Source: an uncultured Candidatus Saccharibacteria bacterium (lineage in GTDB: Bacteria; Patescibacteriota; Minisyncoccia; Minisyncoccales; UBA10102). From it: a DNA stretch of 64,000 bases. Within the stretch, counting starts at the first letter, position 1. Each line of letters begins with the position of its first letter. The stretch covers positions 176 to 64,175 of the forward strand of contig CAYHVI010000002.1 in NCBI GenBank assembly GCA_964359655.1, written 5' to 3'. The translations under genes were made by a program, and so were the position numbers. This document shows, one piece after another, positions 5,482-46,141 of this stretch. Under the pieces are notes generated by a model, which did not search any database, was not told the origin of the DNA, and saw only the letters and a list, made by a program, of their open reading frames with translations.

Positions 5482-5799
5482 TTATGTTTCGATAGATGTA
5501 ATTTCTACTTCAGAGTAAGGCTGGCGGTGTCCTTTCTTTACTTGCTCACGCTTTTTCGCCTTATACTTGAATACCACCACTTTTTTGTTTTTTCCCTGCT
5601 TTAAGATTTTGCCTTTTACTTTAGCTCCCTGCACCAATGGCGTGCCAATTTCAATACTTTTATCGTTTTGAAGCAATAGTACCTCTGAAAATTCAACATC
5701 ACTCCCTTCTTCTTGGGCGAGTTTCTCTACTTTAATTTTCTTGCCGGGAGAAACCAAGTATTGCTTTCCCCCTGTTTTAATAATCGCTAATTCTGCCAT
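5482..5799 (-). CDS. rplU: Ribosomal protein L21
   Basis: MAELAIIKTGGKQYLVSPGKKIKVEKL is a typical L21 N-terminus. The internal ATG was chosen as start. Confidence 0.92.
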   Translation of the reverse strand: MAELAIIKTGGKQYLVSPGKKIKVEKLAQEEGSDVEFSEVLLLQNDKSIEIGTPLVQGAKVKGKILKQGKNKKVVVFKYKAKKREQVKKGHRQPYSEVEITSIET

Positions 5800-5833
5800 A
5801 TAAAGTGTAGTATAGGGCAATTTTTGCTCGGGG

Positions 5834-6868
5834 TCAAGACTCTTCTTGCTCTGGTTTTTGGAGTTGGAGAGTTTCTATTTCGCTGGGTTGACCCGTGATT
5901 TTAACAATATCTTTGTCTACTTTGCCGAGTTCTTTATACGCTGTGTTATAGGTATTCACGGTAGTGCCAAGATGGCTGCCGAGTTTTTTCATATAGCCTT
6001 CATAAGAAGCTAAATGCCGCTGAAGATCTTCCACGCGTCTGTGGATTTCTTTTGCAGATTCCTCAATTTGCATTGCCTTGAGTCCCTGGAGGACTGTTTG
6101 TAAATATGCGAGAAAAGAGGTGGGTGAAACAATAATCACTCGATATTTTCCTGCTGCTCTTTGTACAAGGTTTTCCGTATCTTCGCCAAGCGCTCCGATT
6201 TTGTTGATGAGAAGGTCGTAATAAATGGCTTCGTGTGGGATGAACATAAAAGCAAAATCGGTTGTCCCCTGTTCAGGTTGAATGTACTTTGAGGTTTCAA
6301 CAATACGGTTTTTCAGATCGTTCACAAAAGCTTTCTCCAAGCGGTTACGTTCCGTTTGATCTTGCGTTTCAGAGATACGATTATAATTTTCAAGAGAGAA
6401 TTTAGAGTCAATAGGTATGATTTTGTCTTTCACGAATACCACCGCATCCACAATAGTTCCGTCTGGAAATCCATACTGCATTTGGTAGGAGCCCGGCGGC
6501 ATTACGTTTTTGAGAAGCGTTTCCAAATAGTATTCTCCCAACACTCCCCGTTGCTTCGGATTTTTTAAAATGTCCTGGAGATTCTTGAGTTGGTCGGTAA
6601 TATTCATCACCTGCTTTTGTCCTTCGCTTACGCGCGTGAGCTCTTCAGTAATATTCTGAATAAGTTTTGCTGATTCTGAATACTGCTGCTGGAACATTTT
6701 TGCAGAGGTGCCGAGCTTTTCATCGAGCGTATTGCGTAAGTCCTGCAGCTGATTTTGAATCATCAAAATTTCCTGACTCCCACTCCTCTGTTTGGAGTTT
6801 TTAAACCATGTAAAGAAAATTACAATTCCTAAAATCGCAATAAAGATGAGGTATCCTAAGTCTTGCAT
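5834..6868 (-). CDS. rmuC: DNA recombination protein RmuC
   Basis: 344 aa with an N-terminal TM segment, a coiled coil, and an RmuC-type C-terminal region (TDFAFMFIPHEAIYYDLL). Confidence 0.85.
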   Translation of the reverse strand: MQDLGYLIFIAILGIVIFFTWFKNSKQRSGSQEILMIQNQLQDLRNTLDEKLGTSAKMFQQQYSESAKLIQNITEELTRVSEGQKQVMNITDQLKNLQDILKNPKQRGVLGEYYLETLLKNVMPPGSYQMQYGFPDGTIVDAVVFVKDKIIPIDSKFSLENYNRISETQDQTERNRLEKAFVNDLKNRIVETSKYIQPEQGTTDFAFMFIPHEAIYYDLLINKIGALGEDTENLVQRAAGKYRVIIVSPTSFLAYLQTVLQGLKAMQIEESAKEIHRRVEDLQRHLASYEGYMKKLGSHLGTTVNTYNTAYKELGKVDKDIVKITGQPSEIETLQLQKPEQEES

Positions 6869-33021: not shown

Positions 33022-33183
33022 TTACGCTGCCTTCCTCTTTCGGAGGGCTTTACATTTGAATAATCTTTCGAGTTGATGGAGTCGTCTCTCGCAGGGACCG
33101 CAGGGTTTTCTGTATTTTCTTGGGCATCCCATCAATTTCTGTCCAAGATTGATTATCTCTATTTCTTGAATCGCAAACATCAT
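33022..33183 (-). CDS. Basic Cys-containing mini-protein (53 aa), below the ORF-track cutoff
   Basis: SD AAGGAGAGGGGG precedes the ATG. Translation: MMFAIQEIEIINLGQKLMGCPRKYRKPCGPCERRLHQLERLFKCKALRKRKAA. Terminator 32984-33011 follows. Confidence 0.5.
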   Translation of the reverse strand: MMFAIQEIEIINLGQKLMGCPRKYRKPCGPCERRLHQLERLFKCKALRKRKAA

Positions 33184-33229
33184 TGCCCCCTCTCCTTATC
33201 CGATTTATTGAACGAACCAAAACAAAAAT

Positions 33230-33244
33230 CCAGCCCGCGGCTGG
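33230..33244 (-). terminator. Leader hairpin plus U-tract inside the 5' leader of the 53-aa ORF
   Basis: CCAGCCgcgGGCTGG followed by ATTTTTGTTTTGG on the minus strand. Confidence 0.5.
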
Positions 33245-33277
33245 AGTGCTATTGCGAAATGCCTTATCGTATTTCTC

Positions 33278-33364
33278 TTATGCAAAAGTCGCAACAAAAA
33301 TCTCACAGCCGGAAGGGCCTTGGAGACATGCACAGCCACAGCATGAAGAAATAATATAAGACAT
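33278..33364 (-). CDS. Leaderless Cys-rich mini-ORF (28 aa), candidate leader peptide
   Basis: ATG lies 7 nt after TATACT (promoter TTGACA 33394-33399, 16-nt spacer). Translation: MSYIISSCCGCACLQGPSGCEIFVATFA. Confidence 0.45.
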   Translation of the reverse strand: MSYIISSCCGCACLQGPSGCEIFVATFA

Positions 33365-33402
33365 TACGATCAGTATACTCGTTCAGAATTGCTTGTCAAC
33401 CC

Positions 33403-33457
33403 CAGAAAAAAATTGGGTGGAACTTCTTTGATTCTTTGAATCATTGAGGTTCCACCC
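33403..33457 (-). terminator. Rho-independent terminator of the DAHP synthase gene
   Basis: GGGTGGAACC...GTTCCACCC followed by AATTTTTTT on the minus strand. Confidence 0.75.
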
Positions 33458-33466
33458 TTACGGAAG

Positions 33467-34486
33467 TTACGCTTTGCGGTTTATCACAGCCCTGATTGGC
33501 CTAACCTGATCCATCATATTCGCGAAGTTCTCGAAGGTCAGCGACTGCGCGCCGTCGCACTTGGCGACGTCAGGGTTGGGATGCACCTCGACGATGAGGC
33601 CGTCGGCCCCCACTGCCGTCCCAGCCATTGCCAGCGGCGTCACCAGATACCACTTGCCGGTGCCGTGGCTGGGGTCAACGACGACGGGCAGATGGCTCAG
33701 CTTGTGGATTACCGGGATGGCGTTGAGGTCCAGGGTGTTGCGGGTGTAGGTCTCGAAGGTGCGGATGCCCCGCTCGGTCAGGATGACCTGATGGTTCCCC
33801 TCCTTCATCACGTACTCGGCGGCCAGGAGCCAGTCCTCGTAGGTGGCCGCGAAGCCCCGCTTCACCATCACGGGCTTGTCGGTCTTGCCCACCTCGTCCA
33901 GCAGGGGGAAGTTCTGCATGTTGCGAGCGCCGACCTGGAGCACGTCGGCGTAGCGATAGACCATCTCCACGTCGTTGGGCGACATGACCTCGGTGATGAT
34001 GGGCAGGCCGGTCTCCTGGCGGGCCTCGGCCAGTATCTTCAGCCCGTCCTCGCCCATGCCTCGGAAGCTGTAGGGGGATGTCCGAGGCTTGTAGGCCCCG
34101 CCGCGCAGCACCTGAGCGCCGGCCGCCTTGACCGCCCTGGCCGTCGTCAGCACCTGCTCCTCGTTTTCTACGGCGCAGGGGCCGGCGAACACTGCAAAGT
34201 GGCCCCCGCCGATCTTCACGCCATTGTCGCTTATGGTAACGATGGTATCCTCGGCGGAGAACTCGCGGCTAGCCAGCTTGTAGGGCTTGGATACGCGGAA
34301 CACCTCGCTCACGCCGCGCATCAGTTGAAGCTCATCCTGAAGCTCTGGGTACACCTGCCCCAGGACGGCCACGACCCTGCGCTCCACGCCGACGTTGAGC
34401 TGTCCCCGAAGTCCTTTCTCGGTTAAATGCCTTTGAACCCGTTCAATGTCTCCATTGCTCGCTCCTCTACCCATTACGACGATCAT
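33467..34486 (-). CDS. 3-deoxy-7-phosphoheptulonate (DAHP) synthase, type I-beta with N-terminal ferredoxin/ACT-like regulatory domain
   Basis: 339 aa from the ATG after AGGAGG. Translation MIVVMGRG...[10 protein letters not shown]...GPCAVE...[19 protein letters not shown]...VDPSH is co-linear with the Thermotoga-type enzyme. The gene is visibly GC-rich. Confidence 0.92.
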
Positions 34487-34585
34487 TCTCTTCCTCCTAA
34501 GTGCCACACTTCACTATCTGTAAAGCGCTAGAGATTATAAGTTTTTCTCTAGCGATGATTTTCAGAGACTAAAGACCATCGCTAA

Positions 34586-34623
34586 AGCTAAACGAAAACT
34601 CCGGCCGCTGTCGGCCGGAGTTT
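34586..34623 (-). terminator. Attenuator terminator in the DAHP synthase leader
   Basis: AAACTCCGGCCGacagCGGCCGGAGTTT followed by TCGTTT. Its left arm and loop (GCCGACAGCG) are complementary to CGCTGTCGGC inside the leader ORF (34674-34683). Confidence 0.7.
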
Positions 34624-34646
34624 AGTATCTTTAGAAAACTATGAGC

Positions 34647-34727
34647 TTATGCTCGTTTGGATACCAAAATCTTGCCGACAGCGTCGGTAAAGAAATAAAA
34701 GTATCCAAAGAATTGCTTCAAACCCAT
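34647..34727 (-). CDS. Phe/Tyr-rich leader peptide (26 aa)
   Basis: Own translation: MGLKQFFGYFYFFTDAVGKILVSKRA. Five Phe and two Tyr fall within 8 residues. The ATG lies 9 nt after the -10 box. Confidence 0.6.
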   Translation of the reverse strand: MGLKQFFGYFYFFTDAVGKILVSKRA

Positions 34728-34736
34728 ATTATGTAC

Positions 34737-34764
34737 AGTATACGCGATCAAGAGATGCTGTCAA
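34737..34764 (-). promoter_or_regulatory. Sigma70-type promoter of the DAHP synthase unit
   Basis: TTGACA, 16 nt, TATACT on the minus strand. Confidence 0.65.
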
Positions 34765-34858
34765 GACCAGAAGTGCTCGCACGGCAGAGATAGTTTCTCT
34801 TGCGAGAAACAGGAGAGAGTCTCGTACCGTGAGAGCGCTTCTAGTCCCGATGAAGAAA

Positions 34859-34887
34859 TTGACACCAGTCCTACACATTTCTATAAT
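34859..34887 (+). promoter_or_regulatory. Perfect-consensus divergent promoter
   Basis: TTGACA, 17 nt, TATAAT on the plus strand. The ATG at 34897 lies 9 nt after the -10 box. Confidence 0.65.
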
Positions 34888-34896
34888 GGAAGCATT

Positions 34897-35076
34897 ATGT
34901 GGATAATCAAGTGTGACATATGCAAGCGGCAAATTAAAGACGATTCCATAAAAGTGGGGCTTGGATTCTCGAAACGATTAGAGTTATGTCAAAAATGTGG
35001 GGCTCCGATTCTGCAATTTCTTAAAAAGAGCAAAGTTATAGAAGCTAAAGAGGAATCAAAACTCTATGGCATATGA
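34897..35076 (+). CDS. Zinc-ribbon mini-protein (59 aa), just below the ORF-track cutoff
   Basis: Own translation: MWIIKCDICKRQIKDDSIKVGLGFSKRLELCQKCGAPILQFLKKSKVIEAKEESKLYGI. Overlaps the next ORF by 11 nt. Confidence 0.5.
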   Translation: MWIIKCDICKRQIKDDSIKVGLGFSKRLELCQKCGAPILQFLKKSKVIEAKEESKLYGI

Positions 35077-35395
35077 TATCAAACAAATCATTGAGGAAAC
35101 CGCAAAGAAAACTGGGGAAGAAGTAAAACATCACATGGATGTGGTTGCTGAAGATTTGAAGGGGCAAATTCAGCAAGTTGCTGAAGGTGTTGTCGTTGCG
35201 AATGATCGGCTGGATCGTTTGGCAGAACTTCCTGATAAGGTTGATGCAATAAGAGATGATGTGGAGGTAATAAAGATTACTCTCGGGACCATTAAGAATG
35301 ATCTCAAGCAGAAGGTTGATCGCGATGAATTCGTTACTCTCGAAAAACGTGTAAGCATGCTCGAAGTAAGACTCAATCGCAGCACGCCCGCCTAA
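35066..35395 (+). CDS. Hypothetical coiled-coil protein, 109 aa
   Basis: Heptad-rich acidic sequence, translationally coupled to the 59-aa ORF. Confidence 0.5.
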   Translation: MAYDIKQIIEETAKKTGEEVKHHMDVVAEDLKGQIQQVAEGVVVANDRLDRLAELPDKVDAIRDDVEVIKITLGTIKNDLKQKVDRDEFVTLEKRVSMLEVRLNRSTPA

Positions 35396-35557
35396 TTTTT
35401 GAATTTTTCAAAGAACACTTCGACTCAATTCGTTCGCTTACTATAAACTCTCTCGAATCTCGTAAATCTACAACTCTGTTTGTTCTAAACTTGCGAGATT
35501 TTTGGAGCCTGGATGAAAATCTTGACTTCTGTTTCGATTAAGATAGGATATTCTTAT

Positions 35558-35851
35558 ATGGTAAAGAAAGTTCAAGCTAAGATTTTAAATTATCGGGTAA
35601 TCATTGAAAAGGAATATTATCCAGATGGCACTCCGGTATATACTGCTTTTGTTCCAACACTGGGAGTTGCTGATTATGGTCCAACCATTGATAAAGTGTT
35701 AAAGAGCTTGAAAGACGGTATTGAACTTGCAATTGAATGTCTCGTTGAAGAAAGAAAAGAAGTGCCCGTCGACAAAGTAGAGGAAACAATGGTTGTCCAT
35801 ACCCAGGTTTTGGCTCCAAAAAGCGCAAGGCTCGTATCTGCTTTAAAGTAA
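35558..35851 (+). CDS. hicB: HicB-like antitoxin (UPF0150 fold)
   Basis: MVKKVQAKILNYRVIIEKEYYPDGTPVYTAFVPTLGVADYGPTIDKVLKSLKDGIELAIE. Promoter is TTGACT, 16 nt, TAGGAT, with the ATG 8 nt after the -10 box. Confidence 0.7.
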   Translation: MVKKVQAKILNYRVIIEKEYYPDGTPVYTAFVPTLGVADYGPTIDKVLKSLKDGIELAIECLVEERKEVPVDKVEETMVVHTQVLAPKSARLVSALK

Positions 35852-35858
35852 AGCGTTA

Positions 35859-36080
35859 ATGAAATTTCCCTCGGACATTAAGCCAAAAGATGTCGTAAGA
35901 ACTTTGGAAAAGTTTGGTTTCCAAAGATATAAGAGCAAGGGTAGTCATCTTTATTTTCGACATCCGGACGGCAGGTGGACTCAAGTTGCAGTTCATCCAA
36001 AACCTATTCCCATGGGAACACTAAGGAAAATTCTTAATCAAGCGGAAATTGCACCTGAAGACTTCTTAAAACGCCTTTAG
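35859..36080 (+). CDS. hicA: HicA-family mRNA interferase toxin
   Basis: KPKDVVRTLEKFGFQRYKSKGSHLYFRHPDGRWTQVAVHPKPIPMGTLRKILNQAEI is a typical HicA/YcfA sequence. Confidence 0.8.
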   Translation: MKFPSDIKPKDVVRTLEKFGFQRYKSKGSHLYFRHPDGRWTQVAVHPKPIPMGTLRKILNQAEIAPEDFLKRL

Positions 36081-36089
36081 CTAACTTTT

Positions 36090-36335
36090 CTTTTTTCTCC
36101 TTCCGGACAATCAAGCCTCCCTTCACTTCGTTCAGGGTAAACTCTTAATCCCTGTTGCTGGAAGAACTCATTCGGCCAAAGAAATTTTATTTGAAGGTAC
36201 TTTGTTTTTCCTTTCACAGTGCACAACTTTCTGTTATGCACTCTGGTAGGATGGGCAAGGTTTGTTTGTAGGGAGTACTTTCGGTACTGTTCAAACCTCT
36301 CTTGCCCTAAAGGATATTCGGTTTTCCGGAGAGGC
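36090..36335 (-). repeat. Structured-leader family, copy A (diverged, no downstream ORF)
   Basis: Shares TTCTCCTTCCGGACAATCAAGCC, a CTCATTCGGCCAAAGAAATT-type segment, and a long outer stem GGGCAAG...CTTGCCC with copies B and C. Confidence 0.5.
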
Positions 36336-36709
36336 TAGTCTACAAAGGCCTCTACCGGCTCCTTTACCACGCCGTCCGTAGACGACGCGGTGTATACCTG
36401 TAGGTCCTCGTCCTCCTCGACGAGGTCACCTGCGGGTTCCTCCACTTCCTCGAAGTGGAAGTGGATGTTGACGACCGTGGTGGGGACGGGGATCGCGGGC
36501 CTATTGATCCAGGCCAGCACCACGGGGACCACTAGCGCCCCGAAGACGATGGCGGCCACTAGGCCTAGTCCCACTACCACCGTCCCGAGGGTGGCGATGG
36601 GCAGGACATCTTGCATGAGATCGGGGCTTAATCCCCGACTCATGAGCCCTATGAACACCGCGGCCATAGCGGCCGCAACAAAGATGATTAGTTTTCCTCG
36701 TGTGGACAT
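36335..36709 (-). CDS. Hypothetical GC-rich membrane protein with an acidic C-terminal tail, 124 aa
   Basis: SD GGAGGTGGA precedes the ATG. Translation starts MSTRGKLIIFVAAAMAAVFIGL..., with 2-3 TM segments and a tail EEVEEPAGDLVEEDEDLQ. Confidence 0.6.
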   Translation of the reverse strand: MSTRGKLIIFVAAAMAAVFIGLMSRGLSPDLMQDVLPIATLGTVVVGLGLVAAIVFGALVVPVVLAWINRPAIPVPTTVVNIHFHFEEVEEPAGDLVEEDEDLQVYTASSTDGVVKEPVEAFVD

Positions 36710-36721
36710 TTTGTCCACCTC

Positions 36722-36915
36722 CTGTCAAATTCCCTTCGGGATTTCTCCTTCCGGGTAGTCAAGCTCTTACAATTTTCGAGACTCTTTTGCCTGATTGCCC
36801 GAAAGGAATTTATTTCAATGTACTTTCCAACATTTCAGCCCTGCAAGAAGTCGAAGGGCTCAAGTATTGGGGCGAGTCGAGAATCATACATGATTTTCTC
36901 AACTCGCCCTCGCCA
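36722..36915 (-). repeat. Structured-leader family, copy B (5' leader of the 124-aa ORF)
   Basis: Minus-strand hairpins GGGCGAGUUG...CGACUCGCCC, GAGCCCU...AGGGCU and CCUUUCGGGCAAUCAG...CUUGACUACCCGGAAGG. Confidence 0.55.
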
Positions 36916-37191
36916 TCCTGCCGCGCTGGGTCAGGGCCTTGCTATTTCTCCCACACACGGTGTGTGGGTCTCATAGCAGCGAGCTGAACACTAATTCTCT
37001 TTGGATCTCTGTAATGAATCAATAAACTTGAAGATCAGATTAACTAATGTTCACTTCGTTGCTATGAATGTTTTGAAAAGAACTGTTTTAAACTCCCTGC
37101 CCCGTACTAATTTTGTTTTGCAAAATTTAGTACTGGGGTCTCGAATCTCGTAAATCGAGAACTTTTTTGTTCCAGACTTAAGATATTCTTG

Positions 37192-37234
37192 GAGCCTGGG
37201 GAAGGTAGCGCTTTCGCACTCCTTCCCCAGGCTC
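37192..37234 (-). terminator. 14-bp hairpin after the 110-aa ORF (no clear U-tract)
   Basis: GAGCCTGGGGAAGG...CCTTCCCCAGGCTC. Confidence 0.5.
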
Positions 37235-37239
37235 GCTTG

Positions 37240-37572
37240 TTAGGCGGAGGGTTCCGTCGTTGTTGCCTTTGCAGCGACTTCCTCCGTGGTGATGGTGATC
37301 TGCTCGCGGGCGTTCTCAAGCGCTCCCATGAGGGAAAGCAACCTGGCCGTCTCCACAGAAGCCATCTTGACCTCCACGATTTTAGGAGCGATTATATTTA
37401 TCTCTGCATCTTTCAATTGCGCGACGCAGAGAGTGATCGCTGTCAAATCTCGCGGGCTGAAGTTTTGCCTTTGTGTGGTGATCTGACCGGCACCGATATC
37501 CTTAAAACTCACCTTATATAGCCTTACTGTTGTACTGTTCTCTTCTTTTTGAAGGTCAACGATGAACTGCAT
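37240..37572 (-). CDS. Hypothetical 110-aa protein
   Basis: SD AGGAGG, 5 nt, ATG. Translation starts MQFIVDLQKEENSTTVRLYKVSFKDIGAGQITTQRQNF... Preferred over the antisense plus-strand ORF 37189..37521. Confidence 0.55.
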   Translation of the reverse strand: MQFIVDLQKEENSTTVRLYKVSFKDIGAGQITTQRQNFSPRDLTAITLCVAQLKDAEINIIAPKIVEVKMASVETARLLSLMGALENAREQITITTEEVAAKATTTEPSA

Positions 37573-37599
37573 TTTTTCCTCCTGGCGTCTTTGCGCCTA

Positions 37600-37800
37600 T
37601 AAAATGCCGGGCTAGGATTTCTCCTTCCGGACAATCAAACCTCCGCATAAGTCGAAGGACTGATTGCCCGAAAGGAATACTTGTCCTGAGCGTAGTCGAA
37701 GGATTTCAATGTACTTTCCAATATTTCAGCCCTGAACGAAGTCGAAGGGCTCAAGTATTGGGGCGAGTCGGTGATCCTAAGGATCTTCGCAACTCGTCCA
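37600..37800 (-). repeat. Structured-leader family, copy C (5' leader of the 110-aa ORF)
   Basis: Same three-hairpin layout as copy B. The distal part of hairpin 1 has a different sequence but still pairs (GAUCCUaAGGAUC versus AAUCAUguAUGAUU). Confidence 0.55.
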
Positions 37801-38127
37801 CGCTGGGGTTACTACATAGTAACCTCCTTTCTTCTCCTCGATTTCCTATAAGGAACCTAGAATACCAACATTATCCTGGATTCCTTCTTCAAGCTCACAA
37901 TGCGTGTTGCATTTTTTGCGTTCTTGAAGAAAGAATCCTTCACCCCTTATTTCATCTGCTTTATTATCTGTACCATGGTATTCTTAATGAAGTAGAATTG
38001 ATAACGTACTTTTCTCGATGCAATCTCTGAAATTCATGTCTTACTTTGAACTTCAGTGATTGGAGATCTCGGGTTGGCGTTGGCGCTCTGTTTTTAGATT
38101 TTGTTTTTGCCTTCCCGAGATCTCCTG

Positions 38128-38301
38128 CTACCGGCCTAGCGATGCCTTGAGCTTCGCTAAGCTCGGATCGCCGATGTCTATAATGTGCCCACACTGGGCA
38201 CATTCCCGGAACTCGCCGTAAATATCTCTGTTTTTTACCATGTCCCCTCGGCACCGGGGACATGCCTTGAAATTAACTTGGATGGAAGCCAGATGGAACA
38301 T
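38128..38301 (-). CDS. Zinc-ribbon mini-protein (57 aa), below the ORF-track cutoff
   Basis: SD GAGGAGG, 4 nt, ATG. Translation: MFHLASIQVNFKACPRCRGDMVKNRDIYGEFRECAQCGHIIDIGDPSLAKLKASLGR. Confidence 0.55.
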   Translation of the reverse strand: MFHLASIQVNFKACPRCRGDMVKNRDIYGEFRECAQCGHIIDIGDPSLAKLKASLGR

Positions 38302-38500
38302 GAGTCCTCCTCATTTTTTATTGAGCGCCCCGATGACCCTTACCCGTCATCGGGATGCTCACGGAGGTTTCTAGGTTCTTCTGTCCCTACGCCTTAGTCT
38401 ACATTTCATCTCTTGATCTTTTGTCTTTTAATCTAGACTTAGGTTTAGGGATGAGGGGTACGCGCAGATTTCTCCGTCGCGTCCCCTCGCCCTTTGGTCT

Positions 38501-38815
38501 TTACTTCCGTAAGACCTGTTCCTTCAATTCTGGATTGACGCTAACGTGCAGCCGCACGTCAGGTGGTCCAGAGTCCCCGAGTCTGGGGACAGAGGTGGAC
38601 TTTGTCACGTGTCCGAGAACCTGCCCCAACCTTGAAACCGTACAGAGAACTTCACCTGTTATGATTGCGTTCTGTACTATCATCGGCTCCACTGTTGACC
38701 ATGGAACCCTGAAGTCGGTTTCGGTTGTTGGGTGAATGGTTACACCCACTTTTCCCGCATCTTCGCGGAATGCTGCTTGAATCCCCTCAGGGAGACTATC
38801 GAAATAGAACGACAT
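38501..38815 (-). CDS. Hypothetical 104-aa protein
   Basis: SD AAGGAGGAAACG precedes the ATG. Translation starts MSFYFDSLPEGIQAAFREDAGKVGVTIHPTTETDF... Promoter TTGACA, 17 nt, TATACT at 39028-39056, with a ~205-nt leader. Confidence 0.55.
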   Translation of the reverse strand: MSFYFDSLPEGIQAAFREDAGKVGVTIHPTTETDFRVPWSTVEPMIVQNAIITGEVLCTVSRLGQVLGHVTKSTSVPRLGDSGPPDVRLHVSVNPELKEQVLRK

Positions 38816-39165
38816 CGTTTCCTCCTTCTTAAATATGCTTTCCCTTCTAATGACTTTGCTTGTCGTCAGAAGGCAGAGCACACTCATCTATAAGCACAAC
38901 AGCCCTCTTTGGGAGAGCTGTGTGGTTTAACGTACTTCTGTCTTAAATATAGATAGGCAAGTTTAGCTTTATTTTGGCCTCTCCCTGACCAATAAGCTTG
39001 TATATTCAATTTTCACTTTACTCTCATAGTATAGCATACTTCTAAAAAAATGTCAAGGGTTTTGTGGAGGGAACAAAAAACGCCCTATTTTGGCGGTTCT
39101 TATGTGGTTTGGTGTAGATTGATGGGGAGAGGAGAAGCGGTTCGCTCACTTCTCCTCTCCCTCTG

Positions 39166-39357
39166 TTAGACGACGCGGGTGATCTGCCCGGTTACCAGAT
39201 CTAAGGCGTATTGAGGAACCTTGTATCCCGGAGGAAGCTTGCCGCCAAAGCGGTAATTGGTCATGGCTCGAAGGACTCTGTCGGCCTGCGACGACAAGCC
39301 GAATCCTAGAAATCCACCTCTCGCTCGGTATCTCTTAGATGCAATGTCTCCGCGCAT
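39166..39357 (-). CDS. Hypothetical 63-aa protein
   Basis: SD GTGGAGA precedes the ATG. Translation: MRGDIASKRYRARGGFLGFGLSSQADRVLRAMTNYRFGGKLPPGYKVPQYALDLVTGQITRVV. Promoter TTGACA, 17 nt, TATCAT at 39456-39484. Terminator hairpin at 39125-39161. Confidence 0.5.
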   Translation of the reverse strand: MRGDIASKRYRARGGFLGFGLSSQADRVLRAMTNYRFGGKLPPGYKVPQYALDLVTGQITRVV

Positions 39358-39494
39358 TTTTTTCTCCACTTAAAATTTTGGATTACATTGGGGGGTATTT
39401 AAAAACTCTCAAGGTGCTGCTCCTTTCTGCTTCCTGTGAAAGCTTAAATTTTTAAATGATAGCATCGCATAAAAGTCGTGTCAATAGCTGTAGA

Positions 39495-39522
39495 GAAAGA
39501 CCCCTTTCATGGAGGGTCTTTC
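39495..39522 (-). terminator. Hairpin terminator immediately after rpsP (right border of the island)
   Basis: GAAAGACCCTCCATGAAAGGGGTCTTTC on the minus strand. Confidence 0.65.
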
Positions 39523-39525
39523 TTA

Positions 39526-39894
39526 TTACATTTTTGGGGGTTCTGCGGGGGTTGGGGAAGCTGTGGAAGCTGGTTGTGGCGTTTGTTGCGCCGGCGGTGT
39601 AGGGGTTTCTGTTTTATCCGCTTTCTTTGGTTTCTTGTGTTTATGTATTTTTGAACCCGTCACAATTCCATCTGTAATCAGCATATTATGTACTGTCGGA
39701 GATGGTTTAGCTCCAACAGACATCCAGTATTTTACCCTATCCCCTTTCAAGTTTCGTTGTTTGCTAAGAGGATTGTATATTCCCACTTCCTCGACAAAAC
39801 GGCCTCTGGTAGAAGAGTTTCTTTTGTCTGCGACTACAATCTTAAAAAAAGGTTGATTTCGTCTGCCGACTCTGAATAATCGTATCGTTAGCAT
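39526..39894 (-). CDS. rpsP: Ribosomal protein S16 with a C-terminal extension
   Basis: MLTIRLFRVGRRNQPFFKIVVADKRNSSTRGRFVEEVGIYNPL. Confidence 0.93.
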   Translation of the reverse strand: MLTIRLFRVGRRNQPFFKIVVADKRNSSTRGRFVEEVGIYNPLSKQRNLKGDRVKYWMSVGAKPSPTVHNMLITDGIVTGSKIHKHKKPKKADKTETPTPPAQQTPQPASTASPTPAEPPKM

Positions 39895-39909
39895 TGCTTT
39901 ATTTAATAT

Positions 39910-39975
39910 CCTACGAATTACGAATTTTTGCGAATTTACGAATTCGTATATTCGTACTTATTCGTTATTCGTAGG
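39910..39975. repeat. 66-bp imperfect palindrome built from ~8 TACGAAT/ATTCGTA heptamers between rnc and rpsP
   Basis: CCTACGAATTACGAATttttGCGAATtTACGAATTCGTAtATTCGTActtATTCGTTATTCGTAGG. Confidence 0.8.
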
Positions 39976-39981
39976 GGTGAT

Positions 39982-40674
39982 TTACTTCCAGCCCTTTTCT
40001 GCAAGCGCGTTTTTCGCGGCTGCTTCCTCTGCTTCTTGTTTGGAAGAACCCTCTCCTTCTGCCACAAGTTCTTTATCTAAATATATTCCTATGCGGAAGT
40101 TTTTGGCATGGTCTGGCCCCCATTCTTTCAATACTGTGTACGTGGGAGTAATGCCCATTTTCTCTTGTGCAATTTCCTGGAAACGAGATTTGGCGTCCAA
40201 AAACAATTCTGCCCTTAATACTTCTGCAAGTTTGGAGAGTATATGCTTTGTAATAAATTTCGCGGCATTTTTCAAGCCCTTGTCAAGATATAAGGCGCCG
40301 ATAAAAGCTTCCACGGTATTTGCCAAAATATAGTCTCGCGCTTTACCCTCTTCTTTTGCCTCGCCGTGAGAAAGCATTAAATACTCGTTGAAGCCCAAAT
40401 CGTGGCCAATTAAAGAAAGCATTTTGGTATTTACAAGAGCTGCGCGCCAGGCAGTAAGCTCGCCCTCGGGTTTTTCAGGATGCTCTGTGTATAAATGTTC
40501 TGTAACAACCAACTCGAGCACTGCATCTCCCAGAAATTCGAGGCGTTCATTCTGCGGGAGATGAAAGTCCCGGTTTTCGTTGAGATACGAGCGATGAACA
40601 AACGCTTGCTGGAGTAATTCTTTGTCTTTGAAGGGAAGTTTGAGTTTTGATTCGAGTTGAGAAAAATCAATCAT
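39982..40674 (-). CDS. rnc: Ribonuclease III
   Basis: Signature [16 protein letters not shown] plus a C-terminal dsRBD. Confidence 0.95.
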
Positions 40675-41110
40675 TGGTTTGTTGCGTTGCTTCTAATTCA
40701 CGGAATACGGTGCCGAGCACGCCATTGACGAATTTACCAGACGACTCGCCGCTGAAGTTTTTGGCAAGTTCAATTGCTTCGTTGATTGCCACTTTCGGAG
40801 GCACCTCTTCTTTATTTCCATAGATAAGCTCGTAAAGACCTAAGCGTAAAACATTCCGGTCAACAACGGTAATTTGATCTAAAGGCCATTCAGGCGCTGC
40901 TTTTTCGATAATGGCGTTGAGCTGCTGGAGATTTTCACCAACGCCCGAAGCTAACCGCCTGACAAAATCTTTATTGCCTTCTTCAAGGCCTGGACCGAAT
41001 TCTGTGATATTGCGCTCGACAATTTGTGATAAATCAGATTTTCTACTATAAAAATCCCATTCGTAGAGAGACTGCATTGCTATGGAACGTGCGAGGTGCC
41101 GGCTGGCCAT
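40667..41110 (-). CDS. nusB: Transcription antitermination factor NusB
   Basis: 147 aa. [20 protein letters not shown]... is a typical NusB sequence. Confidence 0.9.
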
Positions 41111-41189
41111 GTTTTAATGTTGGACTGTTAGATTGCTTGATTGTTGGAGTGTATCATTCTGACATTCGAACATTCCAACATTCAGACAG

Positions 41190-41477
41190 TTATTTCTTCG
41201 ACATTTCTTCAGGATTCAATTCTTTCGATTCACTGGAACCTACCCCTTCTTGTGCTGCCAATTCTTTCTGTTTTTGCTTACGCTCTTTTTTGGTGAGTTT
41301 TGCGAGTACGTCAACTACTTCCCTACCCCGGTACGTACCGCAGTTTTCGCAAAGCGTATGCGGCAAAACCGGCTTGCCACACTTTTTGCAGGCTATCAGT
41401 CTGGGGGTTTTAAGGAAAATGTGCATTCTCCTTTGCCCTTGTCTGGATTTGGAACGATGCCATTTGGGAACGGCCAT
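41190..41477 (-). CDS. rpmF: Ribosomal protein L32 with a C-terminal extension
   Basis: MAVPKWHRSKSRQGQRRMH...CKKCGKPVLPHTLCENCGTY. Confidence 0.92.
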   Translation of the reverse strand: MAVPKWHRSKSRQGQRRMHIFLKTPRLIACKKCGKPVLPHTLCENCGTYRGREVVDVLAKLTKKERKQKQKELAAQEGVGSSESKELNPEEMSKK

Positions 41478-41481
41478 GTTT

Positions 41482-42087
41482 TTACTTTATCAGAAGACTT
41501 GTATATTTGCAAGGGGCGAAGGAGAGGCGGTGGATGGGGCAAGGGCCATATTTTTCGAGCATTTCGAAATGCAAAGGGGTGCCGTATCCCTTATGACGAT
41601 CAAAGCCGTACAGGGGATATTTTTTGTGGTAACGGAGCATAAGCCTATCTCGTGTGACTTTGGCAATAATAGAAGCTGCCATGCAGGAAAATATTGTGGT
41701 ATCTGCTTTTATGATTGCCTTTTGCGGAGCAGAAATATCAATCGTGGACATACCATCAACAATCACAAGATTTGGGTTCAATCCCCTTTTCTCGAGTTTA
41801 CCATTGAGCTGAAGAAAGGCTTTGCGCATCGCAAGCCGCGTTGCCTGGAAGATATTTATCTTGTCGATGAGTTTTTCTGAAACCTTGCCTATCCCCCACT
41901 CTGTTTGGGGGTGAGTGGTGAGAATTTGATATAAATCTTCTCGCCATTGAGGTGTAAGTTTTTTGGAATCAAAATCCCCTACTGCGCGAAACTTTGGCTT
42001 CCCTATTATGCAAAATGCTGCTGCCACAACTGGCCCCGCAAGAGGCCCTCTCCCTGCCTCATCAATTCCAACTATTATTTTTTGCAT
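41482..42087 (-). CDS. rnhB: Ribonuclease HII
   Basis: IVGIDEAGRGPLAGPVVAAA N-terminal catalytic motif. Confidence 0.93.
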   Translation of the reverse strand: MQKIIVGIDEAGRGPLAGPVVAAAFCIIGKPKFRAVGDFDSKKLTPQWREDLYQILTTHPQTEWGIGKVSEKLIDKINIFQATRLAMRKAFLQLNGKLEKRGLNPNLVIVDGMSTIDISAPQKAIIKADTTIFSCMAASIIAKVTRDRLMLRYHKKYPLYGFDRHKGYGTPLHFEMLEKYGPCPIHRLSFAPCKYTSLLIK

Positions 42088-45952: not shown

Positions 45953-46068
45953 GAAATAGGAGGCGCGCCGTACGTGGGAACGACATGGTCCCTGTATGTC
46001 CCATGCGCGTTCCACAACACCTGGGGGTCAACCCCCAGACGTTGAGCTAGGATCTCGTCCTTGTCCAT
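45910..46068 (-). CDS. Hypothetical 52-aa ORF overlapping the ParB-like ORF in another frame
   Basis: SD AGGAGG, 7 nt, ATG. Translation: MDKDEILAQRLGVDPQVLWNAHGTYRDHVVPTYGAPPISWEAWIESPRTIAE. Confidence 0.45.
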   Translation of the reverse strand: MDKDEILAQRLGVDPQVLWNAHGTYRDHVVPTYGAPPISWEAWIESPRTIAE

Positions 46069-46095
46069 AAGGCTACCTCCTTTCATGTTGAGCTC

Positions 46096-46141
46096 ATTAT
46101 AGCATATAGATATTGACATGTCAATGGCAATATGCTATAAT
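46096..46141. promoter_or_regulatory. Back-to-back perfect-consensus divergent promoters sharing a palindromic -35 (TTGACATGTCAA)
   Basis: Plus strand: TTGACA (46113-18), 17 nt, TATAAT (46136-41). Minus strand: TTGACA (46119-24), 17 nt, TATAAT (46096-46101). Confidence 0.7.

Follow-up and report, generated by a model that had tools for sequence, protein, structure and literature searches.

The stretch of DNA analysed here, 64,000 nt of contig CAYHVI010000002.1 and hereafter the window, belongs to an uncultured Candidatus Saccharibacteria bacterium of the Patescibacteria and was obtained from 0.1-µm-filtered groundwater at the Hainich site. It carries a promoter, a short open reading frame (ORF) dense in Phe and Tyr codons, an intrinsic terminator, and a gene for 3-deoxy-D-arabino-heptulosonate 7-phosphate (DAHP) synthase (DAHPS), in this order, and the region in front of the gene, a candidate transcription attenuator, is the element of interest. 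All coordinates are positions in the window, and both the attenuator and the DAHPS gene lie on its minus strand. The promoter, which scored 11/12 in a scan for consensus promoters, consists of the -35 hexamer TTGACA (34759..34764), a 16-nt spacer, and the -10 hexamer TATACT (34737..34742), and is followed after 9 nt, without a Shine-Dalgarno (SD) sequence, by the ATG of the leader ORF. This ORF (34647..34727; ATG at 34727, stop codon at 34649-34647) reads MGLKQFFGYFYFFTDAVGKILVSKRA plus stop, has 26 codons, and contains the run F6 F7 G8 Y9 F10 Y11 F12 F13 (34689..34712), with five Phe and two Tyr in eight codons. The terminator (34587..34623), separated from the stop codon by 23 nt, was the top match of a terminator scan and has a 12-bp GC-rich stem (34623-34612/34607-34596; -22.3 kcal/mol) of the form AAACUCCGGCCG/ACAG/CGGCCGGAGUUU (34623-34596), with ACAG as the loop, and then UCGUUU; counting the last three U of the stem, its U-tract is UUUUCGUUU. 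A 100-nt spacer, which ends with the SD sequence AGGAGG (34493..34498), leads to the DAHPS gene, whose start is 160 nt downstream of the leader stop codon on the same strand. An earlier, sequence-only reading of this DNA had described the promoter with its 9-nt distance to the ATG, the ORF with its codon run, and a terminator within 34586-34623, and all three were recovered, the last with its 12-bp stem and U-tract.

Because only 9 nt without an SD sequence separate TATACT from the ATG, the leader transcript is probably leaderless or nearly so. A 5'-terminal or near-terminal AUG appears to be a normal start in this genome, because two further genes have the same layout of a -10 hexamer, 9 nt, and ATG: the bL21 gene (TTGACC-17-TATACT, 9 nt, ATG, no SD sequence), whose Pfam match begins at residue 5, and a TrpR-like gene (TTGACA-18-TATCGT, 9 nt, ATG, no SD sequence). 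Leaderless mRNAs thus appear to be common in the genome of this member of the Patescibacteria. Many genes in the window, that for the ribosomal protein bL21 among them, showed a consensus promoter followed after ~7 to 9 nt by an ATG without an SD sequence, for example at 5799-5837, 32920-32959, 34859-34897, and 46066-46124.

The gene downstream of the leader (33467..34486; ATG at 34486) was identified by profile matches as a type I-beta DAHPS of 339 aa with an N-terminal ferredoxin-like regulatory domain. It matched PF18152 and PF00793, NCBIfam NF006421 with 487 bits (cut-off, 335), and TIGR01361 with 399 bits (cut-off, 268), and on these matches it is a complete, genuine DAHP synthase, as the earlier reading had named it.

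Folding of the leader RNA gave three mutually exclusive structures: an anti-antiterminator, an antiterminator, and the terminator. The minimum-energy fold of the ribosome-free RNA (-54.6 kcal/mol) combined the anti-antiterminator hairpin with the terminator, and a slightly longer RNA of 153 nt (34732-34580) took the same fold with a z score of -7.55 against shuffles. The anti-antiterminator (34640..34728; about -29 kcal/mol), a hairpin of ~90 nt, encloses the whole ORF, from just before the AUG to nine bases beyond the end of the stop codon, and its core pairs UUUGGAUAC (34709-34701) with GUAUCCAAA (34664-34656). The sequence-only reading had proposed a further stem that brackets the F/Y codons; the stem exists, but UUUGGAUAC is itself codons 7 to 9, so that the stem contains the regulatory codons. 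Buried within the hairpin, in a small inner CCGAC/GUCGG hairpin, is CGCUGUCGGC.

This buried segment provides the 5' strand of the antiterminator (34674..34687), which by folding comprises CGCUGUCGGC (34683-34674) and CCG (34687-34685). Over its 10 nt, CGCUGUCGGC is perfectly complementary to GCCGACAGCG (34615-34606) in the terminator region; perfect complementarity had been noted before, and what needs correction is the extent of the target, which is not the whole left arm of the terminator but the final 4 nt of that arm, the loop, and 2 nt at the start of the right arm. A nested helix, with UUUGGUAUC (34660..34668) as its 5' strand and 34629-34621 as its partner, re-uses GUAUC, which is otherwise paired with the F/Y codons; in the terminator state, bases 34660..34668 are the 3' arm of the anti-antiterminator. 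Together, 34683-34674:34615-34606, 34687-34685:34603-34601, and the nested 9-bp helix 34668-34660:34629-34621 form a composite antiterminator of -41 kcal/mol, whose 3' strands in the folding pair lists (34629-34621, 34619-34618, 34615-34606, and 34603-34601, within 34601..34629) occupy the entire left arm of the terminator, its loop, and half of its right arm.

The effect of a ribosome on these folds was simulated by masking a footprint of 28 to 31 nt codon by codon and refolding the full-length RNA. With the A site on codons 5 to 11 (4 to 10 with the longer footprint), the minimum-energy fold lost all 12 terminator pairs and acquired all 10 antiterminator pairs, and at all other ribosome positions, stop codon included, as well as without a ribosome, the terminator formed. 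The fold-flipping positions (codons 5 to 11) therefore coincide with F6 F7 G8 Y9 F10 Y11.

The leader arrangement is genuine, and chance is a very poor explanation for it. Over all six reading frames of the 64 kb, FFGYFYFF was the sole 8-codon window with at least seven Phe/Tyr, and dinucleotide-shuffled windows held a mean of 0.07 runs of at least 7/8 Phe/Tyr. A perfect 10-nt complement between the leader and the 5' half of the terminator was reached in 4 of 5,000 dinucleotide shuffles of the leader (P of about 8e-4). Furthermore, of 300 dinucleotide-shuffled leaders fused to the unchanged terminator, not one switched at any position, and a neighbouring cassette of promoter, small ORF, and terminator (31195-31012), which served as a negative control, switched at no ribosome position. 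Attenuation of the pheL/pheM type had been proposed from the sequence, and each in-silico test (exclusive folds, codon-specific switch, and 0/300 shuffles) agreed with the prediction of that model. Direct observations are the elements in the sequence, the identity of the gene, and, in silico, the three alternative folds and their response to where the ribosome sits.

On this basis, the element is probably a leaderless ribosome-mediated (leader-peptide) transcription attenuator that couples DAHPS expression to the supply of charged tRNA-Phe and tRNA-Tyr. The locus has the features of the attenuator class: a promoter-adjacent short ORF, clustered codons for the pathway products, a terminator, an exclusive antiterminator, and a codon-specific in-silico switch. 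From these features we infer the start of transcription, translation of the leader ORF, termination, and an in vivo response to Phe and Tyr. Transcription would begin at the AUG at 34727 or a few bases before it, and a ribosome would load on the 5'-terminal AUG without an SD sequence. When Phe and Tyr are plentiful, the ribosome would pass codons 6 to 13, reach the stop codon, and leave; the ~90-nt hairpin would then zip up, CGCUGUCGGC would be locked away, the 12-bp terminator would form, and RNA polymerase would stop at about 34590, ahead of the DAHPS gene. When Phe-tRNA or Tyr-tRNA is scarce, the ribosome would stall on the F/Y codons and cover the 5' arm of the ~90-nt hairpin; the freed GUAUC(C) would pair with GAUAC (34628-34624) and CGCUGUCGGC with GCCGACAGCG in the terminator, and this composite antiterminator would use up the left arm of the terminator, so that the polymerase would read into the DAHPS gene. 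In Thermotoga-type DAHPS, a ferredoxin-like domain mediates feedback inhibition by Tyr and Phe. Because the DAHPS of the window has a ferredoxin-like domain of this type, control may be exerted at two levels, by attenuation in the leader and by feedback through this domain.

Several points weigh against attenuation. Its support is in silico throughout. In the simple footprint model, a ribosome on Phe codon 12 or 13 no longer causes the switch. In a transcript ending at 34606, the antiterminator is the minimum-energy fold already without a ribosome; since equilibrium folding takes no account of kinetics, the outcome would depend on the hairpin forming first. A TATAAT at 34539-34534, between the terminator and the DAHPS gene and with no recognisable -35 element, might allow transcription independent of the attenuator. 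Other copies of the leader were found solely on contigs ~99.8 to 100% identical that come from the same groundwater, and in these the leader shows no substitution (the 10 differences between contig L081 and the window are all outside it); the locus was not found in related genomes, so that comparison lends this leader no support. In addition, because DAHPS is the sole aromatic-pathway gene found in the 64 kb and Patescibacteria usually lack pathways of this kind, any physiological role of the control is hypothetical.

Three other explanations of the locus were weighed against attenuation. The unit is a complete promoter-to-terminator cassette in a region rich in short cassettes with consensus promoters and terminators, and it might be an independent small gene, encoding a 26-aa hydrophobic/aromatic microprotein or a small RNA, with DAHPS transcribed separately, for example from the TATAAT in the spacer between terminator and gene. 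This hexamer, however, is without a usable -35 element and was missed by the promoter scan, and the control cassette at 31195-31012 exemplifies what a unit that does not switch looks like. An independent gene would also leave unaccounted for the 10-nt complement of a terminator arm inside the ORF, the switch exactly at the F/Y codons, and the match between the codon bias and the pathway of the next gene, and we consider it improbable.

Even less probable is a genuine switch that is set by an RNA-binding protein, an uncharged tRNA, or a metabolite, with the ORF incidental. The alternative structures do exist irrespective of translation, and the neighbourhood has genes for small regulators related to amino acids, one a stand-alone Lrp/AsnC ligand-binding domain and the other a TrpR-like protein. 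However, Rfam searches of the window gave no match at gathering scores apart from tRNAs (no leader family, T-box, or riboswitch), and in 32500-35000 they returned nothing relevant even at E values up to 5. The start of the ORF sits where a leaderless start would be expected, and its F/Y run, unique in the 64 kb, coincides with the ribosome positions at which the fold switches. Nor was a TrpR-type operator found at the leader promoter (near 34737-34764, up to 3 mismatches); the two TrpR-type operators stand elsewhere, 1.8 kb downstream of it, at other promoters. A chance arrangement in AT-rich intergenic DNA beside an ordinary terminator could draw on the ease with which Phe/Tyr codons arise in T-rich sequence and on the over-representation of consensus promoters in the region (30 against 16.5 expected), but the joint improbability of the F/Y run (0.07 expected), the complement (P of about 8e-4), the switch (0/300 shuffles), and the fold (z = -7.55), together with a downstream gene whose function matches the codon run, makes this hardly credible.

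The DAHPS coding sequence (CDS) differs in origin from the regulatory DNA that precedes it. The CDS has a GC content of 62.8% and a GC content at third codon positions (GC3) of 83.5%, against a GC3 of 39 to 47% in host genes; promoter, leader, terminator, and spacer have 39 to 42% GC, which is the host composition. A gapless nucleotide alignment with a gene on contig L083, which has 61% GC, shows 88.7% identity, and the similarity is limited to 34487..33480, that is, to the CDS. Because its GC and GC3 deviate from the host and the identity to L083 covers the CDS only, the CDS is by these sequence comparisons foreign and a recent horizontal acquisition. Protein matches fall from 100% straight to 78% identity, and the relatives at or below 78% are from Dehalococcoidia/Chloroflexota; the members with at least 90% identity (P0121 on L083 and P0122 on L085) sit in high-GC, unrelated contexts. 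The locus is not an assembly chimera, because three independent assemblies cross both CDS junctions. A count of HIP1 sites, made as a test of a cyanobacterial origin, showed no enrichment. Derivation of the leader as a copy of a pheM-type pheST leader of the same genome was ruled out, since pheS has no leader: the 119 nt upstream of pheST (2882-3000 of contig L212; window 63969 onward) carry an ordinary promoter but neither a pheM-like leader nor a terminator.

The 30 DAHPS loci closest to that of the window, from Dehalococcoidia and other groups (55 to 77% identity), showed no aromatic leader ORF, and at the closest loci inspected the gene is downstream of a chorismate-mutase-like ORF, identified by inspection only. 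The Dehalococcoidia loci, with the closest relatives of the enzyme (60 to 78% identity), thus differ from the window in having no leader. Furthermore, the adjacent TrpR-like protein has its closest homologs in the Candidate Phyla Radiation (CPR; Yanofskybacteria and Paceibacterota, 60 to 68%), and no DAHPS gene was found near these CPR homologs.

The combination of a Phe/Tyr leader with DAHPS is already known, the mechanism is a textbook one, and the element changes nothing that is known about attenuation. In Corynebacterium glutamicum, the leader peptide aroR, with Phe-Tyr-Phe, is upstream of aroF, which encodes a DAHP synthase (Mentz et al. 2013, PMC4046766); read-through into aroF rises with ribosome stalling under Phe limitation, according to the summary in PMC11802643 of Neshat et al. 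(2014), and the ilvB leader peptide is synthesised although its ORF has no ribosome-binding site (Morbach 2000, as cited in PMC4046766). Predicted attenuators before operons headed by DAHPS genes were listed in 2005 for Thermus and Vibrio (PMC1173090, Table 7). The window and C. glutamicum share a Phe/Tyr leader ORF immediately upstream of the DAHPS gene, but the latter belongs to the Actinomycetota and has three regulatory codons where the window, in the Patescibacteria, has seven. The C. glutamicum AroF is presumably an E. coli-like type I-alpha enzyme, and the DAHPS of the window is of type I-beta with a ferredoxin-like domain. Because of the distance between the phyla and the different DAHPS subclass, sequence homology of the window leader to aroR is unlikely.

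With the E. coli pheL-pheA and pheM-pheST leaders (trpL archetype), the window leader shares the logic of anti-antiterminator, antiterminator, and terminator and the tandem codons for an end-product amino acid inside the first stem. It differs from them in several respects: it matches no Rfam leader family (Phe_leader, Trp_leader, or others); its ORF is without an SD sequence (leaderless); the terminator-pairing strand lies within the first hairpin instead of making up its 3' arm, and the antiterminator includes a second, nested helix; and the regulated enzyme is the first of the common pathway, with codons for both Phe and Tyr. Unlike in E. coli, pheST of this genome has no pheM-like element. 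In E. coli, the DAHPS genes aroH, aroF, and aroG are under repressor control by TrpR and TyrR; here, no TrpR-type operator overlaps the DAHPS leader promoter. The sequence-only reading had called the combination unusual, which holds relative to E. coli but not in general, given aroR-aroF and the further leaders, described below, before DAHPS homologs of at least five other phyla.

A survey of 80 DAHPS loci from GTDB genomes identified an aromatic-rich short ORF plus a strong intrinsic terminator before DAHPS in four Desulfobacterota (L033, L056, L061, and L065), one member of the Anaerolineales (L046), and the CPR lineage Gribaldobacteria (L076). Examples are ...SYTYWYYWYYFYFW.. in L065, ...CYYFYYWY.. 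in L056, and MSKQTNFQFFYFYTF... in L076. ORFs with at least 7/8 aromatic residues were present upstream in sense orientation at 3 of 74 loci and in none of three antisense/downstream control regions. Like the window, these loci of other phyla have a type I-beta DAHPS downstream, the leader in the same position, and an intrinsic terminator after the ORF; most of them differ in having an SD sequence and Trp codons. On the foreign leaders, the footprint scan mostly gave no switch at equilibrium, owing to their very strong terminators, and the automatic procedure did not detect these terminators reliably, so these scans were not used as evidence. Rfam scans of nine foreign DAHPS leaders detected no leader family, and tRNAs were the only matches across the Rfam scans. 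In the Gribaldobacteria locus (L076, 1077-4092), LeuA (2-isopropylmalate synthase) is followed by the F/Y leader ORF and then by DAHPS, and a long terminator hairpin overlaps the 3' part of the leader ORF; LeuA and DAHPS each catalyse the first step of a biosynthetic pathway, and the lineage is one regarded as auxotrophic.

Metagenomes were scanned with a DNA pattern encoding FFGYFYFF. The scan returned 120 stretches, 43 of which had the match in a short ORF, and at 7 of these 43 a DAHPS homolog started 94 to 153 nt downstream. Exact protein look-up assigned such DAHPS leaders to Cloacibacillus (Synergistota) and Flintibacter/Pseudoflavonifractor (Bacillota). The identical octapeptide occurs in MKQFAAYQFFFGYFYFFSNQS of Cloacibacillus, MMKQFAAYFFGYFYFFGF... 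of Flintibacter/Pseudoflavonifractor, and ...NFFFGYFYFFSFRK of the metagenome contig L092 (record prefix Ga0123355). These leaders align with one another beyond the codon run, and the window leader RNA does not align with them. Because the window leader is unalignable beyond the run, the octapeptide it shares with the Cloacibacillus group is best read as convergence, with old homology as a possibility; one reason for convergence, which is speculative, may be that the Gly codon gives GG for pairing in a U-rich run. The leader RNA/peptide family MKQFAAY(Q)FF(F)GYFYFF..., with a strong terminator before DAHPS (L114, 5171-5344; L112, 9193-9365; L190, 3189-3360; and L092, 5717-5892), has Cloacibacillus, Flintibacter/Pseudoflavonifractor, and contig L092 as its hosts and is absent from Rfam. 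Its occurrence across phyla suggests that leader and DAHPS gene move together. A DNA match to FFGYFYFF in L166, from the same groundwater sample as the window, was rejected because it arises by chance, in a different frame of a longer sequence.

A candidate second attenuator (33215..33399, minus strand) directly follows DAHPS. It has the promoter TTGACA-16-TATACT, followed after 7 nt by an ATG at 33364, the ORF MSYIISSCCGCACLQGPSGCEIFVATFA, and a 7-bp terminator (33245-33229) with a U-tract, and it precedes an orphan, Cys-containing ORF of 53 aa (33183-33022) with a strong SD sequence, of which no homolog was found among 1.8 billion representatives. This second unit switched with the footprint at codons 2 to 12, which covers its Ser/Cys codons, but 60 of 178 shuffles switched too, and Cys-rich runs (at least four Cys in six codons) are not unique, with five in the window. 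Compared with the DAHPS leader, its support is weaker, and it is a candidate only for a Cys-codon attenuator. The alignment score between the DAHPS leader and this unit was above that of shuffles (P of about 0.001); because a clearly different third unit exceeded shuffles likewise, the alignment test detects a shared layout and not homology of the two. The third unit (31012-31195) consists of a leaderless Leu/Val/Ile-rich ORF of 33 codons (..QVLVLMLILVQ..) and a terminator that belongs to it; an acidic ORF of 55 aa and a tRNA-Ile gene follow downstream. It was ruled out as a branched-chain attenuator, since its terminator forms at every simulated ribosome position.

Beyond the second unit is the leaderless TrpR-like gene (32920..32609). 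A perfect palindrome similar to the core of the E. coli trp operator, TCGTACTAGTACGA (32920-32933), overlaps both the start codon of this gene and its -10 region, which suggests that it is autoregulated. A copy of TCGTACTAGTACGA with one mismatch (32567-32580) stands in the same position before an ORF of 34 codons, which is followed by a Trp-rich ORF of 107 aa (32463..32140). The section of the window from 29700 to 42000 has a low coding density and an excess of sigma-70-type consensus promoters (30 found, 16.5 expected) and of terminators (28 found, 14.7 expected); most of these lie on the minus strand, around very small ORFs. It also contains a stand-alone Lrp/AsnC ligand-binding domain protein (31488..31261), zinc-ribbon-like miniproteins, and a probable HicA/HicB pair (35513-36080) with a Pfam match for HicA only. 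Two terminators, at 31907-31930 and 31012-31035, have the near-identical core GACCTCCCAGCTGGGAGGT and constitute a repeated terminator module. The other content of the window is housekeeping: CysRS, DnaB, PBP, ClpB-like, DnaE, ThrRS, GatB, PheST, GyrB, and others.

What is unusual about this attenuator candidate is its host in the Patescibacteria, its leaderless design, the foreign DAHPS CDS behind a leader of host composition, and the weaker Cys-codon unit just downstream. A search of one library of papers returned none containing both "Candidate Phyla Radiation" and "transcription attenuation", and the locus would be a clean, statistically well-supported example in a lineage where no such cis-regulatory RNA has been described. 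With its foreign CDS behind regulatory DNA of native composition, it is also a case from which to ask how a host brings imported genes under its own control. The survey may outweigh the single locus, since aromatic leaders before type I-beta DAHPS genes were seen in Synergistota, Bacillota, Desulfobacterota, Chloroflexota, and CPR, which points to an uncurated, widespread class of "aro leaders", none of them in Rfam. It is tentative, and to us somewhat doubtful, that the window holds the first recognisable ribosome-mediated attenuator in the Patescibacteria, one that monitors the cell's own Phe- and Tyr-tRNA charging by a leaderless leader of native composition placed before an enzyme CDS from a high-GC, Chloroflexota-like donor. 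If this is true, an ultra-small, presumably host-dependent bacterium would control an aromatic-pathway enzyme by its own tRNA charging, and some CPR would keep and regulate the entry into the shikimate pathway, contrary to the usual picture of complete amino acid auxotrophy. Together with the Gribaldobacteria locus and the Cys-codon unit, leaderless leader-peptide attenuation would then be a regular regulatory device in CPR.

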